This document shows, one piece after another, positions 7,587 to 54,880 of a stretch of DNA of 64,000 bases. The DNA comes from a phage. The stretch is from NCBI GenBank assembly GCA_012178725.1, contig GCA_012178725.1_3030.1. One strand, given 5' to 3'. Every line of letters starts with the position of its first letter. Position 1 is the first letter of the stretch. The position numbers and the translations under genes were made by a program. The notes under the pieces were generated by a model. That model saw only the letters and a list, made by a program, of their open reading frames with translations. It had not been told where the DNA came from and searched no databases.

Positions 7587-7604
7587 AAAGGCCCGAAGGC
7601 CTTT
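7587..7604 (-). other. intergenic stem-loop (tetraloop hairpin)
   Basis: AAAGGCC-CGAA-GGCCTTT perfect palindrome overlapping stop of upstream ORF; possible terminator or RNA stabiliser. Confidence 0.45.
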
Positions 7605-11511: not shown

Positions 11512-11525
11512 GGGGCCGAAGCCCC
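11512..11525 (-). other. intergenic tetraloop hairpin
   Basis: GGGGC-CGAA-GCCCC (UUCG on minus) between two minus-strand ORFs, just upstream of SD. Confidence 0.45.
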
Positions 11526-31959: not shown

Positions 31960-31967
31960 TATAAATA
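31960..31967 (+). promoter_or_regulatory. late promoter TATAAATA for gene 34
   Basis: Exact TATAAATA 34 nt upstream of gene 34 ATG. Confidence 0.65.
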
Positions 31968-35879: not shown

Positions 35880-36995
35880 ATGGAAAAATTTATGGCAGAG
35901 TTTGGACAAGGATATGTCCAAACGCCATTTTTATCGGAAAGCAATTCAGTAAGATACAAAATAAGCATAGCGGGTTCTTGCCCGCTTTCTACAGCAGGAC
36001 CATACGTTAAATTTCAGGATAATCCTATCGGAAATCAAACATTTAGCGCAGGCCTTCATTTAAGAGTTTTTGACCCTTCCACCGGAGCATTAGTTGATAG
36101 TAAGTCATATGCTTTTTCGACTTCAAATGATACTACATCAGCTGCTTTTGTTAGTTTCATGAATTCTTTGACGAATAATCGAATTGTCGCTATATTAACT
36201 AGTGGAAAGGTTAATTTTCCTCCTGAAGTAGTATCTTGGCTAAGAACCGCCGGAACGTCTGCTTTTCCATCTGATTCTGTATTGTCAAGATTCGACGTAT
36301 CATATGCTGCTTTTTATACTTCTTCTAAAAGAGCTATTGCATTAGAGCATGTTAAATTAAGTAATAGAAAAAGCACAGATGATTATCAAACTATTTTAGA
36401 TGTTGTATTTGACAGTTTAGAAGACGTCGGAGCTACCGGGTTTCCAAGAAGAACGTATGAAAGTGTTGAGCAATTCATGTCGGCGGTTGGTGGAACTAAT
36501 AACGAAATTGCGCGTCTACCAACTTCAGCTGCTATAAGTAAATTATCTGATTATAATTTAATTCCTGGTGATGTTCTTTATCTTAAAGCACAGTTATATG
36601 CTGATGCTGATTTACTTGCTCTTGGAACTACAAATATATCTATCCGTTTTTATAATGCATCAAATGGATATATTTCTTCAACACAAGCTGAATTTACTGG
36701 GCAAGCTGGGTCATGGGAATTAAAGGAAGATTATGTAGTTGTTCCAGAAAACGCAGTAGGATTTACGATATATGCACAAAGAACTGCACAGGCTGGTCAA
36801 GGCGGCATGAGAAATTTAAGCTTTTCTGAAGTATCAAGAAATGGCGGAATTTCAAAACCTGCAGAATTTGGCGTCAATGGTATTCGAGTTAATTATGTCT
36901 GTGAATCCGCTTCACCTCCGGATATAATGGTACTTCCTACACAAGCATCGTCTAAAACTGGTAAAGTGTTTGGACAAGAATTTAGAGAAGTTTAA
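35880..36995 (+). CDS. 35: long tail fibre hinge protein gp35
   Basis: 371 aa; synteny 34-35-36-37. Confidence 0.85.
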   Translation: MEKFMAEFGQGYVQTPFLSESNSVRYKISIAGSCPLSTAGPYVKFQDNPIGNQTFSAGLHLRVFDPSTGALVDSKSYAFSTSNDTTSAAFVSFMNSLTNNRIVAILTSGKVNFPPEVVSWLRTAGTSAFPSDSVLSRFDVSYAAFYTSSKRAIALEHVKLSNRKSTDDYQTILDVVFDSLEDVGATGFPRRTYESVEQFMSAVGGTNNEIARLPTSAAISKLSDYNLIPGDVLYLKAQLYADADLLALGTTNISIRFYNASNGYISSTQAEFTGQAGSWELKEDYVVVPENAVGFTIYAQRTAQAGQGGMRNLSFSEVSRNGGISKPAEFGVNGIRVNYVCESASPPDIMVLPTQASSKTGKVFGQEFREV

Positions 36996-37026: not shown

Positions 37027-37034
37027 TATAAATA
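37027..37034 (+). promoter_or_regulatory. late promoter TATAAATA for gene 36
   Basis: Exact TATAAATA 24 nt upstream of gene 36 ATG. Confidence 0.65.
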
Positions 37035-37057: not shown

Positions 37058-37735
37058 ATGGCTGATTTAAAAGTAGGTTCAACAACTGGAGGCTCTGTCA
37101 TTTGGCATCAAGGAAATTTTCCATTGAATCCAGCCGGTGACGATGTACTCTATAAATCATTTAAAATATATACAGAATATAATAAACCACAAGCAACTGA
37201 TAACGATTTCGTTTCTAAAGCATCAGGTGGCACATATTTAAACAAAGTATCATTTAATGCAGGTGTACAAATCCCGTTTTCTAAAGACGGCGTAATTCAA
37301 ACAGGGAACATTAATGGTATTTTTCCTGGAGTTGATGATGGGGCCGATTTTACAGCAAACAACCTAGATATCGTTTCTTGGTATGGTGTTGGATTTAAAT
37401 CTTCATTAGGTAATTCAGGATATACGATATCCATTAATACTCGTACAGGCACAATTAATACTAAAGGCGGTGTTTACGCCTCTGGACAAGTTCGTTCAGA
37501 CATGGCTGCACCTGTTGCGGTTAACGATCTTACTCGTAAAGATTATGTTGATGGAGCAATAAATATTGTTACAGCAAACGCAAACTCTAGGGTATTACGC
37601 TCTGGAGACACTATGACAGGAAATTTAACTGCGCCAAACCTTTTTTCACAGAATCCTGCATCTCAACCCTCACATGTTCCACGATTTGACCAAATTGTTA
37701 TTAAGGATTCTGTTCAAGATTTCGGCTATTATTAA
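37058..37735 (+). CDS. 36: long tail fibre distal small subunit gp36
   Basis: 225 aa; synteny. Confidence 0.85.
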   Translation: MADLKVGSTTGGSVIWHQGNFPLNPAGDDVLYKSFKIYTEYNKPQATDNDFVSKASGGTYLNKVSFNAGVQIPFSKDGVIQTGNINGIFPGVDDGADFTANNLDIVSWYGVGFKSSLGNSGYTISINTRTGTINTKGGVYASGQVRSDMAAPVAVNDLTRKDYVDGAINIVTANANSRVLRSGDTMTGNLTAPNLFSQNPASQPSHVPRFDQIVIKDSVQDFGYY

Positions 37736-37743
37736 GAGGACTT

Positions 37744-40700
37744 ATGGCTACTTTAAAACAAATACAATTTAAAAGAAGCAAAACTGCAGGAGCACGTCCT
37801 GCCGCTTCAGTATTAGCCGAAGGTGAATTGGCTATAAACTTAAAAGACCGTGTACTTTTTACTAAAGATGACCAAGGAAATATTATTGATCTGGGTTTTG
37901 CTAAAGGCGGTAGTATTGACGGGAATGTTATTCATACAGGCAATTATAACCAAACTGGCGATTATACTTTAAATGGCGTCTTCACTCAGACTGGTAATTT
38001 TAATTTAACTGGTATTGCTCGAGTAACTCGCGATATTATTGCCGCTGGGCAGATTATGACTGAAGGCGGAGAACTTATTACAAAAAGTTCAGGTACAGCG
38101 CATGTTCGTTTTTTCGATGGCAATAGTCGCGAACGTGGAATCATTTATGCCCCGGCTAATGACGGTTTAACTACACAAGTACTTAATATCAGGGTTCAAG
38201 ACTATGCCGCTGGCAGCGAAAGCACTTATGCATTTTCAGGCAGTGGCCTATTTACTTCACCTGAAGTATCAGCATGGAAATCTATTTCGTCTCCACAAAT
38301 TCTGACCAACAAAGTCATTACTAATAATAAATCTACGGGTGATTATGACATCTATTCGATGGCAGACAATGTTCCATTGTCTGAAAGCACTACTGCTATT
38401 AATCATCTTCGTGTCATGCGTAATGCCGTTGGTTCTGGTATTTTCCATGAAGTTAAAGATAATGATGGAATAACTTGGTATGCAGGTGATGGACTTGACA
38501 CCTATCTTTGGTCATTTACTTGGAGCGGCGGAATTAAATCAAGTCACTCAATTTCTATTGGTTTAACATCTGGTAGTAAAGATTATTCAATATTAGGACC
38601 ATCTAGTATTGCTTTAGGAGATAATGATACTGGATTTAAATGGCATCAAGATGGATATTATTTTAGCGTTAATAATGGAACAAAAACGTTTTTATTTAGT
38701 CCTAGCGAAACAACTAGCCTAAGAAAATTTGTAGCTGGATATTCTACTAACGGAACCGATTTAACTACTCCTCCAACTGAAAATTATGCTCTTGCTACTG
38801 TCGTGACATATCACGATAATAACGCGTTTGGAGATGGTCAGACTCTTTTAGGATATTATCAAGGCGGTAACTATCATCACTATTTCCGCGGCAAGGGTAC
38901 TACAAACATTAATACTCACGGCGGTTTGTTAGTTACTCCTGGTAATATTGACGTTATTGGTGGTTCTGTTAATATTGATGGTAGAAATAATGCTTCTACA
39001 CTGTTGTTTAGAGGTAACACAACTGGTAGTAGTTCAGTTGATAATATGACAATTTCCGTTTGGGGCAATACGTTTACTAATCCTAGTGAAGGCACCCGTA
39101 AAAATGTCATGGAAATTTCTGACGCAACTAGCTGGATGAGTTATATTCAAAGACTTACTACTGGTGAAGTAGAAATGAACGTTAACGGTTCATTTGAATC
39201 ATCCGGTGTTACTGCTGGAAATAGAGGAGTTCACACAACAGGCGAAATTTCATCTGGAGCAGTGAATGCTCTTCGCATTTGGAATGCAGATTATGGAGCT
39301 ATTTTTAGACGTTCAGAAGGTAGTCTTCATATTATTCCAACTGCTTATGGTGAAGGCAAAAATGGTGATATCGGTCCACTTCGTCCATTTAGTATTGCTT
39401 TGGATACTGGTAAGGTTGTTATTCCAGATTTAGAATCAAGTTATAACACGTTTGCTGCAAATGGCTACATTAAATTTGCTGGTCATGGCGCTGGCGCTGG
39501 TGGTTATGATATTCAGTATTCACAAGCTGCTCCTATTTTCCAAGAAATTGATGACGACGCTGTAAGCAAATATTATCCTATTGTTAAACAGAAGTTTCTA
39601 AACGGTAAATCCGTTTGGTCTTTAGGTACTGAAATTAATTCGGGTACATTCGTTATTCATCATCTGAAAGAAGATGGATCGCAGGGCCATACATCTCGTT
39701 TTAATCAAGACGGTACTGTTAACTTCCCGGATAACGTTCAGGTCGGCGGCGGTGAAGCTACTATTGCTCGTAATGGTAACATCTGGTCTGATATCTGGAA
39801 AACGTTTACTTCAGCAGGCGACGTAACTAATATTCGCGATGCTATTGCTACTCGCGTTGCCAAAGAAGGCGACACGATGACCGGCACTCTTTGGATTAAT
39901 AAAGATGCCGCTGGAATAGTTCTTAATCCTCCTTTGACCAGTGATTCATCATTTATTCGTTCTGATACGGCCGGGGCCAATAATTGGTATATTGGTAAAG
40001 GCGGTGCCGACAATGGTCTAGGTTTTTACAGTTACATTACACAAGGCGGTGTATACATAACAAATACCGGTGAAATATCGCTTTCTCCTCAAGGACAAGG
40101 AACATTTAATTTTAATAGAGACCGCCTTTATATAAATGCTAGTCAATGGGTTGCACATAAATCTGGCGCTTGGGGCGACCAATGGGGCTTAGAAGCTCCT
40201 GTATTTGTGGATTTTGGTAGTGTCAGTAATGACTGCTATTATCCTATTATTAAAGGAAAATCTGGTATTACTAACGAAGGATATTTTTCCGGCGTAGATT
40301 TTGGTATGCGACGCATTACTAATACATGGGCACAAGGTATTATTCGTGTAGGTAATCAGGAAAACGGTTCAGACCCACAAGCCATCTATGAATTCCACAG
40401 TAACGGTACTTTTTATGCCCCTAGCCTACTTAAGAGCAACAGAGTATCAGCAGGTGGCGGTGACCCTGTATGGGCCGGGCCATGTATTGTTCTTGGCGAT
40501 AATGACACAGGTCTAGTTTGGGAAGCAGATGGTATTTTCAACGCATATGCAAACGGCCAAGGTGTATTCAGTTTTAGAGCTGGTCTCGCACAAACATTCG
40601 GTAACGTAGCGTTAAACGTTAACGCAGGTATGTATGTTCGTGATAACATTGATGTTAACGACGTTTATATCCGTTCTGATATTCGTTGTAAGTCAGAAAT

Positions 40701-40995
40701 TAAGCTTATTAAGAACGCTCAAGAGAAATCTAAACTCTTAGGCGGCTATACTTATCTGCTTAAAAACTCTGTTACAGACGAAGTTAAACCATCTGCAGGT
40801 TTAATTGCTCAGGAAGTTCAAGAAGTATTGCCTGAACTTGTTTCTGAAGATAAAGAGACCGGACTGCTTCGTTTGAACTATAACGGTATTATCGGTTTAA
40901 ATACTGCTACAATCAACGAGCATACAGATGAAATCAAGGAATTGAAATCTGAAATTGCCGAATTGAAAGCATTAATTAAATCATTGATAAAATAA
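37744..40995 (+). CDS. 37: long tail fibre distal subunit gp37 with C-terminal intramolecular-chaperone-like domain
   Basis: 1083 aa; Gly/Thr/Asn-rich fibre sequence; C-terminal region (SDIRCKSEIK ... GLIAQEVQEVLPELV ... coiled coil) resembles auto-cleaving chaperone domains. Confidence 0.9.
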   Translation: MATLKQIQFKRSKTAGARPAASVLAEGELAINLKDRVLFTKDDQGNIIDLGFAKGGSIDGNVIHTGNYNQTGDYTLNGVFTQTGNFNLTGIARVTRDIIAAGQIMTEGGELITKSSGTAHVRFFDGNSRERGIIYAPANDGLTTQVLNIRVQDYAAGSESTYAFSGSGLFTSPEVSAWKSISSPQILTNKVITNNKSTGDYDIYSMADNVPLSESTTAINHLRVMRNAVGSGIFHEVKDNDGITWYAGDGLDTYLWSFTWSGGIKSSHSISIGLTSGSKDYSILGPSSIALGDNDTGFKWHQDGYYFSVNNGTKTFLFSPSETTSLRKFVAGYSTNGTDLTTPPTENYALATVVTYHDNNAFGDGQTLLGYYQGGNYHHYFRGKGTTNINTHGGLLVTPGNIDVIGGSVNIDGRNNASTLLFRGNTTGSSSVDNMTISVWGNTFTNPSEGTRKNVMEISDATSWMSYIQRLTTGEVEMNVNGSFESSGVTAGNRGVHTTGEISSGAVNALRIWNADYGAIFRRSEGSLHIIPTAYGEGKNGDIGPLRPFSIALDTGKVVIPDLESSYNTFAANGYIKFAGHGAGAGGYDIQYSQAAPIFQEIDDDAVSKYYPIVKQKFLNGKSVWSLGTEINSGTFVIHHLKEDGSQGHTSRFNQDGTVNFPDNVQVGGGEATIARNGNIWSDIWKTFTSAGDVTNIRDAIATRVAKEGDTMTGTLWINKDAAGIVLNPPLTSDSSFIRSDTAGANNWYIGKGGADNGLGFYSYITQGGVYITNTGEISLSPQGQGTFNFNRDRLYINASQWVAHKSGAWGDQWGLEAPVFVDFGSVSNDCYYPIIKGKSGITNEGYFSGVDFGMRRITNTWAQGIIRVGNQENGSDPQAIYEFHSNGTFYAPSLLKSNRVSAGGGDPVWAGPCIVLGDNDTGLVWEADGIFNAYANGQGVFSFRAGLAQTFGNVALNVNAGMYVRDNIDVNDVYIRSDIRCKSEIKLIKNAQEKSKLLGGYTYLLKNSVTDEVKPSAGLIAQEVQEVLPELVSEDKETGLLRLNYNGIIGLNTATINEHTDEIKELKSEIAELKALIKSLIK
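40670..40995 (+). other. C-terminal intramolecular chaperone (peptidase S74-like) domain of gp37
   Basis: Motif pattern S-D-I-R-x-K ... G-Y ... IAQEVQ ... LPELV followed by heptad-like ELKSEIAELKALIKSL. Confidence 0.5.
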
Positions 40996-41000
40996 TAAAA

Positions 41001-41014
41001 GGGCCTTCGGGCCC
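41001..41014 (+). other. intergenic UUCG hairpin between genes 37 and 38
   Basis: GGGCC-UUCG-GGCCC followed by GGAGG SD and gene 38 ATG. Confidence 0.5.
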
Positions 41015-41025
41015 TGGAGGTTTTT

Positions 41026-41805
41026 ATGGCAGTAGTAGGAATTCCTGGTTGGATTGGGACTTCAGCCGTCGCTGAAACAGGCCAGCGCTGGATGTCAGCG
41101 GCCTCTAGAGAATTGCGTCTAGGGAACCCATCTTGGATGTCACAATTCGCTGGACGCTCAAGAGAAATTATTCACACGCTTGGAGCAGACCATAACTTCA
41201 ATGGTCAATGGTTTCGTGACCGTTGTTTTGAAGCCGGCGGTGCTCCTATAGTGTTTAATATCACAGGCAACTTAGTATCATATTCTAAAGACGTTCCTTT
41301 ATTCTTCATGTATGGTGATACTCCTAACGAATATGTTACTTTGAATATTCATGGTGGTGTTCATATGTGGGGCCGAGGTGGTAATGGTAGCGTAAATGGA
41401 AGCCCAGGCACTAATGGTGGCGACGTAATCCAAAATGATATTGGTGGACGACTTCGTATTTGGAACTATGGCGTTATTGCATCAGGCGGCGGCGGTGGTG
41501 GTGCAGTGTCATTACAGAATAGCTGGGCACCAAATGCTACAGCAGGTGGCGGTGGTGGTAGACCGTTTGGCATCGGCGGAGGCGGCGTTAATTGGCCGGG
41601 TGGTAATGCTAGTTATGACGCGCCTGGCGGTGCCGGTTACACTTCCCAATTCGGCGGAGGCAATGGCGGTGATGCTGGAGGTCGGGGTGGAGATGGATGG
41701 GGTAATCACTTATCTAGATCCGGCGGTGGTGCTCCAGGTAGAGCGGTATTCGGTTCTTCACCATCATGGGGTGCAACAGGCACGATCTACGGTTCCTGGA
41801 TTTAA
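41026..41805 (+). CDS. 38: tail fibre adhesin gp38 (T2-type, glycine-rich motifs)
   Basis: 259 aa; multiple poly-Gly motifs (GGGGGGA, GGGGGR, GGGGV, GGGNGG) separated by short variable segments; directly after gene 37. Confidence 0.85.
41380..41740 (+). repeat. glycine-rich motif repeats (GGY codon runs) in gene 38
   Basis: ggcggcggcggtggtggt-type runs visible in DNA. Confidence 0.7.
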
Positions 41806-41824
41806 ATGGTAATACCTCTCAGCA

Positions 41825-41832
41825 TATAAATA
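41825..41832 (+). promoter_or_regulatory. late promoter TATAAATA for holin gene t
   Basis: Exact TATAAATA 19 nt upstream of t ATG, followed by AGGAGGG SD. Confidence 0.65.
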
Positions 41833-41850: not shown

Positions 41851-42507
41851 ATGGCAGCACCTAGAATATCATTTTCGCCCTCTGATATTCTATTTGGTGT
41901 TCTAGATCGCTTGTTCAAAGATAACGCTACCGGGAAAGTTCTTGCTTCCCGGGTAGCTGTCGTAATTCTTTTATTTATGATGGCGATTGTTTGGTATAGG
42001 GGAGATAGTTTCTTTGAGTACTATAAGCAATCAAAGTATGAAACATACAGTGAAATTATTGAAAAGGAAAGAAATGCACGCTTTGAATCTGTCGCCCTGG
42101 AACAACTCCAGATAGTTCACATATCATCTGAGGCAGACTTTAGTGCGGTGTATTCTTTCCGCCCTAAAAACTTAAACTATTTTGTTGATATTATAGCATA
42201 CGAAGGAAGATTACCTTCAACAATAACTGAAAAATCACTTGGAGGATATCCTGTTGATAAAACTATGGATGAATATGCAGTTCATTTAAATGGACGTCAT
42301 TATTATTCTGACTCAAAATTTGCTTTTTTACCAACTAAAAAGCCTACTCCCGAAATAAACTACATGTACAGTTGTCCATATTTTAATTTGGATAATATCT
42401 ATGCTGGAACAATAACCATGTACTGGTATAGAAATGATCATATAAGTAATGACCGCCTTGAATCAATATGTGCTCAGGCGGCCAGAATATTAGGAAGGGC
42501 TAAATAA
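41851..42507 (+). CDS. t: holin
   Basis: 218 aa; single N-terminal TM segment (VAVVILLFMMAIVWY) and large periplasmic domain. Confidence 0.9.
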   Translation: MAAPRISFSPSDILFGVLDRLFKDNATGKVLASRVAVVILLFMMAIVWYRGDSFFEYYKQSKYETYSEIIEKERNARFESVALEQLQIVHISSEADFSAVYSFRPKNLNYFVDIIAYEGRLPSTITEKSLGGYPVDKTMDEYAVHLNGRHYYSDSKFAFLPTKKPTPEINYMYSCPYFNLDNIYAGTITMYWYRNDHISNDRLESICAQAARILGRAK

Positions 42508-54863: not shown

Positions 54864-54880
54864 AAAGGCCCGAAGGCCTT

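Follow-up and report, generated by a model that had tools for sequence, protein, structure and literature searches.

A T2/S16-type long tail fiber tip with a predicted OmpF-binding gp38 adhesin in a Tequatrovirus locus

Results and Discussion

Organization of the locus for the distal tail fiber

The long tail fiber's tip is encoded by 2 adjacent genes, g37 and g38, in a 64,000-nucleotide stretch of phage DNA (contig GCA_012178725.1_3030.1 of NCBI GenBank assembly GCA_012178725.1), referred to here as the window. The original prediction, made from this DNA without database searches, described a T2-type receptor-recognition module starting at 40670, composed of a 1083-amino acid (aa) gp37 with a C-terminus resembling self-cleaving chaperones and a glycine-rich, 259-aa gp38 adhesin. 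The open reading frame (ORF) list and Pfam place g37 at 37744-40995 (1083 aa) and g38 at 41026-41805 (259 aa), both on the + strand, and the predicted coordinates and lengths were therefore right. Genes between 32002 and 42507 on the + strand follow the canonical T-even order of g34-g35-g36-g37-g38-t, with g38 directly after g37 and before the holin gene t, as is typical of adhesin-type g38 genes. Compared with RB51-, RB68-, and ECP52-like Tequatrovirus genomes, a 24-kb region surrounding the locus shows 94-95% identity. The locus is the distal end of a Tequatrovirus long tail fiber operon built on the T2/S16 plan.

The gp38 adhesin

Matches of both proteins to Pfam and Protein Data Bank (PDB) entries were far beyond chance. 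For gp38, PF21721 (Gp38_N) covered residues 1-42 (E=7.6e-21, 74.3 bits, cut-off 25) and PF05268 (GP38) covered residues 47-259 (E=5.1e-83, 278.7 bits, cut-off 25). The protein also matched both crystallized adhesins, gp38 of PP01 (9V85, E=7.8e-73) and gp38 of S16 (6F45_D, E=5.9e-50), so that the assignment of this poly-glycine protein to the T2-type adhesins held over its full length. As judged by these 2 structure matches (E<=6e-50), the question of the gp38 fold appears to be settled.

Three regions of gp38 can be distinguished, named here after PMC12892980 and PMC12032242. The N-terminal attachment domain (residues 1-42, 41026-41151, + strand), recognized by Gp38_N, is predicted to dock on the tip of the gp37 trimer and contains Trp9, Trp22, and Trp37, whose columns are nearly invariant in a 12-sequence gp38 alignment that includes S16; the tryptophans of S16 gp38 plug into the gp37 tip (PMC7917993). 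A linker and beta-helix region follows (residues 43-115, 41152-41370, + strand) and is the most conserved part among the gp38 adhesins aligned. The receptor-binding domain, delimited by PF05268 and the alignments to 6F45_D and 9V85, occupies residues 116-259 and the stop codon (41371-41805, + strand).

Glycine accounts for 65 of the 259 residues of gp38 (25%), and for 35% of residues 110-259. There are 15 runs of 2 or more glycines, including GGGGGG, GGGGG, and GGGG, and the glycine columns of the 12-sequence alignment are invariant or nearly so and align with the 2 crystal structures. Glycine-rich motifs at 116-121 (GRGGNG), 154-159 (GGGGGG), and 174-187, with more runs up to residue 235, alternate with the receptor loops, an arrangement that is consistent with a polyglycine-II sandwich. 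The G+C content of the window climbs to 0.44 at 40-42 kb, where g38 has its glycine codons.

The gp37 shaft and its C-terminal chaperone domain

The first 640 residues of gp37 can be aligned to gp37 of both T4 and T2, and the Pfam family Gp34_trimer matched residues 450-551. At the other end of the protein, PF13884 (Peptidase_S74, "chaperone of endosialidase") matched residues 978-1033 of 1083 (E=9.9e-12, 45.4 bits, cut-off 22). The last 171 residues (913-1083) aligned with the crystallized C-terminal fragment of S16 gp37 (PDB 6F45_A, E=7.8e-30), and the last 124 residues searched alone returned the same structure (E=6.6e-24) as well as a weak match to the auto-processing domain of myelin regulatory factor (MYRF; 7DC3, E=0.024). 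Both strings quoted in the original prediction, SDIRCKSEIK and GLIAQEVQEVLPELV, are present in gp37 together with the heptad-like tail, a C-terminal helix of sequence DEIKELKSEIAELKALIKSLIK. The start given there, 40670, lies 5 bases from the codon for Ser978 (40675-40677), that is, at the boundary of the chaperone domain.

Endosialidase possesses a Ser/Lys dyad. In gp37, a serine with a lysine 5 residues downstream is present at the predicted scissile bond: the sequence reads DVYIR^SDIRCK, and S978-D-I-R-C-K983 aligns with S-D-R-R-I-K of S16 and S-D-I-R-L-K of T2. Ser978 is the predicted nucleophile and Lys983 (40690-40692, + strand) the predicted general base, both from motif alignment. The resemblance to self-cleaving chaperones noticed in the sequence thus corresponds to an S74 domain with Ser-x4-Lys at the S16 cleavage position. 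In a 12-sequence gp37 alignment, the motif [DN]VY[IV]R-SD.R.K is kept in the window, NHEP10, Bas47, Bas38, fPS-2, FL33, RB51, ECP52, RB69, T2, and T6, and S16 has DLNVS-SDRRIK at the same position. Proteolytic processing of T2 gp37 was reported as early as 1986 (Drexler, Riede & Henning, listed in PMC3157838). Autocleavage of S16 gp37 occurs between the 2 serines of DLNVS^SDRRIKK, and for the fPS phages, Salem et al. placed the predicted cut after DVYIR (PMC7917993). By analogy with these proteins, self-cleavage of the window gp37 between Arg977 and Ser978, with loss of the C-terminal domain, is very probable. Given the DVYIR^SDIRCK sequence, the predicted products are a mature gp37 of 977 residues (~105 kDa; residues 1-977, 37744-40674, + strand), which would form the distal half-fiber shaft and end in a putative gp38 docking strand, ...NDVYIR, and a 106-residue, 11.8-kDa chaperone fragment (residues 978-1083, 40675-40992, + strand; PF13884 and 6F45_A).

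Receptor loops of gp38

Loops A through E were mapped onto gp38 using the numbering of the PP01 crystal structure in PMC12892980. Loop A spans residues 122-127 (41389-41406), loop B residues 163-172 (41512-41541), loop C residues 186-190 (41581-41595), loop D residues 205-209 (41638-41652), and loop E residues 223-231 (41692-41718), all on the + strand. In loops B through E, the protein matches RB51, RB69, and the BASEL phage Bas47 residue for residue. Loop A reads SVNGSP compared to TVNGNP in these 3 phages, 2 conservative differences that, among the aligned sequences, are common only to NHEP10. Every loop differs in the adhesins of T2 (FadL/OmpF), T6 (Tsx), and PP01 and S16 (both OmpC).

The closest gp38 relatives found by tblastn in a phage collection were those of NHEP10 (98.8% identity), Bas47 AlbertHofmann (97.7%), Bas38 AugustSocin (97.3%), Bas46 ChristianSchoenbein (95.0%), fPS-2 (94.2%), FL33 (93.0%), FL31 and RB51 (90.0% each), and RB69 (89.6%). 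The primary receptor of Bas38, Bas46, and Bas47 is OmpF according to the supplementary table of the BASEL study (PMC8594841), and ompF complementation has been shown for Bas47. fPS-2 and fPS-90, two Yersinia phages, use OmpF and the core of lipopolysaccharide (LPS) (PMC7917993), and FL31, FL33, and FL34 are OmpF-dependent (PMC12032242). RB69 and RB51 need not only OmpF but also FhuA and a full-length LPS core (PMC3157838). For RB51, RB69, and Bas47, the OmpF requirement is documented by published knockouts. Because the loops of the window gp38 are those of RB51, RB69, Bas38, Bas46, and Bas47, with the 2 conservative changes in loop A, we predict with considerable confidence, from the characterized relatives, that its primary receptor is the porin OmpF of E. 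coli.

The g38 gene and its counterparts in NHEP10, Bas47, and Bas38 are 89-91% identical in DNA and 97-99% identical in protein (3-7 residue differences), with dS of 0.3-0.5 (0.38-0.52 for g38 and its closest relatives) and dN/dS of ~0.04 by the Nei-Gojobori method. Within the OmpF group, the "hypervariable" segments of gp38 are therefore subject to strong purifying selection. Between the window and NHEP10, the method counted ~11 "non-synonymous" steps for 3 amino acid differences, an excess put down to codon paths of several steps that link identical residues, such as those joining the 2 serine codon families; if this is the explanation, the dN/dS of ~0.04 is an overestimate. The original prediction had tied receptor specificity to variable segments between the glycine runs. 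The runs and the intervening loops are indeed present; variability within the OmpF group is not. The description "T2-type" likewise applies to architecture only, because T2 gp38 is 52% identical and the loops are those of the RB51/RB69/Bas47 group rather than of T2.

Proposed mechanism and alternatives

These data suggest the following scenario for the fiber tip. The 1083-aa gp37 would trimerize with the aid of its own C-terminal, 106-residue Peptidase_S74 chaperone domain, and once the fiber had folded, the domain would be self-excised at Arg977/Ser978 by means of Ser978 and Lys983. Excision would bare the flat ...DVYIR tip, on which a single gp38 monomer (259 aa) would dock through its tryptophan-bearing N-terminal domain, giving a putative 3:1 complex by analogy with the characterized relatives. 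The 5 loops, at the far end of the predicted polyglycine-II sandwich, would then bind an outer membrane receptor, most probably the porin OmpF, in the first and reversible step of adsorption. Taken as a whole, this reading of a T2/S16-type tip with a self-cleaving gp37, a gp38 adhesin, and OmpF as the receptor is very likely correct, and nothing was found that contradicts the architecture of the module.

Some parts of it call for caution. The cleavage of this particular gp37 is itself a prediction from characterized relatives. The needs of RB51 and RB69 for FhuA and the LPS core, and a tolC effect reported for the FL phages (PMC12032242), indicate that OmpF alone may be insufficient. Changes of 1 or 2 residues in the variable segments can shift specificity, as in SV76 compared to T2 (Trojet et al., PMC3157838), and loop A of the window gp38 carries serines at 122 and 126 where the tested OmpF phages have threonine and asparagine. 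Receptor data for NHEP10, which shares both serines, were not found.

One alternative is that the architecture is as described and the 2 loop-A substitutions direct gp38 to a receptor other than OmpF, whether FadL, Tsx, OmpA, OmpC, or LPS; single-residue changes have altered the specificity of other gp38 proteins (PMC3157838). However, the substitutions are conservative (Ser/Thr and Ser/Asn), loops B through E are identical to those of at least 6 phages with shown OmpF dependence, and the adhesins that recognize Tsx (T6), FadL (T2), or OmpC (PP01 and S16) differ in all loops. We, therefore, consider a different receptor unlikely. A second alternative is that gp37 keeps its chaperone-like domain as a degenerate remnant, with gp38 binding elsewhere or not at all. 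That cleavage of this gp37 is a prediction leaves room for such a remnant, but Ser978 and Lys983 are both intact, the cleavage-site motif is preserved across the 12-sequence gp37 alignment, and purifying selection on the domain is strong (dN/dS ~0.05 compared to NHEP10 and Bas47). A remnant is thus very improbable.

The T4 arrangement, in which gp37 binds the receptor with a needle at its own C-terminus and gp38 is an assembly chaperone absent from the virion, is suggested by the GenBank labels of several close gp38 homologs ("long tail fiber assembly chaperone" or "assembly catalyst"). These labels, however, derive from T4 nomenclature. BLASTP found no similarity between the window gp38 and the 183-aa chaperone gp38 of T4 (best E=2.1). 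The main alignment to T4 gp37 ends near residue 640, with no significant C-terminal match to the T4 tip among the alignments displayed, and the T4 gp37 tip was also absent among PDB matches at E<=1; the C-terminus aligns instead with gp37 of S16 and T2 (E=5e-30 for the latter). Likeness of gp37 to the T4 tip and likeness of gp38 to the T4 chaperone had been named in advance as the findings that would overturn the original prediction. Neither was found, and the adhesin and chaperone interpretation therefore stands, with the T4 arrangement refuted at the sequence level and its probability close to nil. Two ORFs on the mechanical ORF list, at 41435-41812 (+ strand, 125 aa) and 41512-41709 (- strand, 65 aa), could be read as an overlapping gene hidden in the glycine-rich DNA, but coding DNA rich in GGN has few stop codons in its other frames and the dS of g38 (0.3-0.5 compared to close relatives) would not be tolerable were a second frame constrained, so both were rejected as next to impossible.

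Comparison with known systems

Of the characterized systems, S16, whose gp37-gp38 complex has been solved (PDB 6F45; Dunne et al. 2018, cited in PMC7917993 and PMC12892980), has the same 2-gene plan. Its chaperone domain aligns end to end with that of the window, with the same Ser/Lys motif, and its gp38 aligns over the full length, with conserved tryptophans and glycine motifs. In contrast, S16 gp38 is 49% identical, differs in all 5 loops, and binds OmpC of Salmonella, and S16 gp37 ahead of the cleavage site is unlike the window gp37. The best structural homolog of gp38 by sequence is that of PP01 (PDB 9V85; PMC12892980), the source of the loop numbering, although PP01 is specific for OmpC of O157 and its loops A through E are all unlike those of the window.

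T2 shares a gp37 with a processed C-terminal domain and a glycine-rich gp38 adhesin, and the alignment of the last 290 residues of gp37 to T2 includes the chaperone domain. The T2 gp37 is 30% identical overall and longer (1341 compared to 1083 aa), and the receptors of T2 are FadL and OmpF (PMC3157838, PMC8594841). Members of the OmpF group (RB51, RB69, Bas38, Bas46, Bas47, fPS-2, fPS-90, FL31, and FL33) have gp38 proteins that are 90-98% identical and equal in length or within 2 residues; the difference is S122/S126 in loop A. The gp37 domain, C-terminal on a trimeric fiber and with Ser-x4-Lys, resembles by its PF13884 match the Peptidase_S74 chaperones of endosialidases, pb1 of phage T5, and MYRF, but it is attached to a T-even distal half-fiber rather than a tailspike, and its removal is predicted to create a docking site for a separate adhesin.

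The module is already known and is an ordinary, textbook T-even receptor-binding tip. Its architecture, mechanism, structures, and phylogeny-based receptor prediction have all been published (PMC3157838, PMC7917993, PMC8594841, PMC12032242, and PMC12892980), and proteins identical to gp36, gp37, and gp38 are present in NCBI as EEY7270233-35 on one 167,174-bp contig of an assembly labeled Escherichia coli, with the identical gp38 named "receptor-recognizing protein." That contig has the look of an entire lytic T-even genome submitted as part of a bacterial isolate assembly. What is new here is the receptor, OmpF, predicted for this gp38. The value is practical rather than conceptual: the start of infection at OmpF would be predictable from the sequence of the adhesin allele, and resistance would be expected to come by loss or down-regulation of ompF. 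Such a prediction is useful in phage cocktail design and in the interpretation of host range; the current understanding of T-even adsorption is unchanged by this module.

Mosaic ancestry and linkage of the chaperone domain to gp38

Sliding-window identity and per-gene identities divided the locus into 3 segments. From 37700 to 39900, the N-terminal two-thirds of gp37 is closest to RB51 and ECP52 (92-100% nucleotide identity). From about 39900/40400 to 41300, which covers the gp37 tip, the chaperone domain, and the gp38 N-terminal domain, the sequence is of Mosigvirus type (84-96% to Bas47 and NHEP10), and in the core of this segment (40500-41300) identity to RB51 and ECP52 is only 52-78%. From 41300 onward, through the gp38 receptor domain, t, and beyond, the sequence is again RB51-like (90-100%). 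By this comparison, an RB51-like Tequatrovirus harbors a Mosigvirus-like cassette made up of the tip, chaperone domain, and gp38 N-terminal domain. The pattern points to an exchange of tail fiber modules between the genera, with one breakpoint inside g38, and would be one more such exchange between Tequatrovirus and Mosigvirus. The window gp37 is alone in its own 90% cluster and appears to be a recombinant of known segments.

A 477-nucleotide query of the chaperone domain and gp38 N-terminal domain (40675-41151) was found in 46 phage records, and the cassette was contiguous in 44 of them; carriers included Mosigvirus phages or relatives such as JS98, PhAPEC2, Bp7, VR5, and Shf125875. No locus was confirmed when IMG/VR was scanned with the 12-sequence gp38 alignment, and a scan with the single gp38 protein yielded 13 loci, which were used in the linkage and hairpin comparisons. 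After one locus with a truncated, 33-aa chaperone region was set aside, the chaperone type, told from the length of the domain, and the N-domain type of gp38 co-varied without exception in 19 loci. Chaperones of 105-106 aa were paired with a GIPGWIGTS... N-domain, the type of the window, those of 113 or 117 aa with GVPGWIGSS..., and those of 111 aa with GPWVG.... The gp38 receptor domain assorts independently, as T6 (Tsx) and fPS-2 (OmpF) have the same chaperone and N-domain type. Breakpoints flank the cassette, at the cleavage site on one side and the gp38 linker on the other.

This co-variation is most simply explained by physical adjacency. Alternatively, the departing chaperone trimer could recruit or hand over its cognate gp38, which would make the chaperone and the N-domain a matched pair. 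This idea arises because of the co-variation in 19 loci and the contiguity in 44 of 46 records as opposed to the breakpoints on both sides, and we regard it as speculative and rather unlikely.

Expression signals and an intercistronic hairpin

A T4-type late promoter motif, TATAAATA, lies ahead of g36 at 37027-37034 (+ strand). A motif scan placed others before g34 at 31960 and, for the holin gene t, at the downstream end of the module at 41825-41832 (+ strand). The count of TATAAATA in the window is not above chance, and promoter assignment rests on position and established knowledge of T4 late promoters. The motif at 37027 is the only one ahead of g36-g37-g38, and because it precedes g36 and g38 has none of its own, g38 probably shares a transcript with g36 and g37.

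Between g37 and g38 is a hairpin, GGGCC-UUCG-GGCCC (41001-41014, + strand; -14.3 kcal/mol in a 51-nucleotide context). It begins 5 nucleotides past the TAA stop codon of g37, which is followed by a second in-frame TAA, and ends 1 nucleotide ahead of the g38 Shine-Dalgarno sequence GGAGG (41016-41020). All 24 T-even loci compared, T2, T4, and T6 among them, had a hairpin at this position, with 92% of cells paired; the alignment contained one G-C to C-G compensatory pair, and none of 500 shuffles reached the observed score. Hairpins with CUUCGG have long been known from T4 messages, and the g37-g38 hairpin resembles them. A role as an intrinsic terminator is unlikely, since the ribosome-binding site separates the T-run from the stem and g38 lacks a promoter of its own. 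One idea is that the hairpin, abutting the g38 ribosome-binding site, could tune the 3:1 ratio of gp37 to gp38. Near-identical UUCG hairpins are present at 7589-7602, 11512-11525, and 54866-54879, all on the - strand (chance mean, 0.03).

Neighboring genes

The remaining genes of the operon are on the + strand as well. The g34 product (1289 aa) was named by size, position, and homolog annotations; g35 (35880-36995, 371 aa) and g36 (37058-37735, 225 aa) were assigned by Pfam, and the holin gene t (41851-42507, 218 aa) matched Phage_holin_T (E=3e-116). The 225-aa gp36 is an allele with 71-76% protein identity to the 218- to 219-aa gp36 of RB51, ECP52, T2, fPS-2, Bas47, NHEP10, and RB69, and its 90% cluster has 10 members, phage JEP6 included. 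Residues 58-127 of the hinge protein gp35 matched the Pfam family ILEI (interleukin-like EMT inducer) at E=1e-8, above the curated cut-off, an unexpected family name for a phage fiber hinge.

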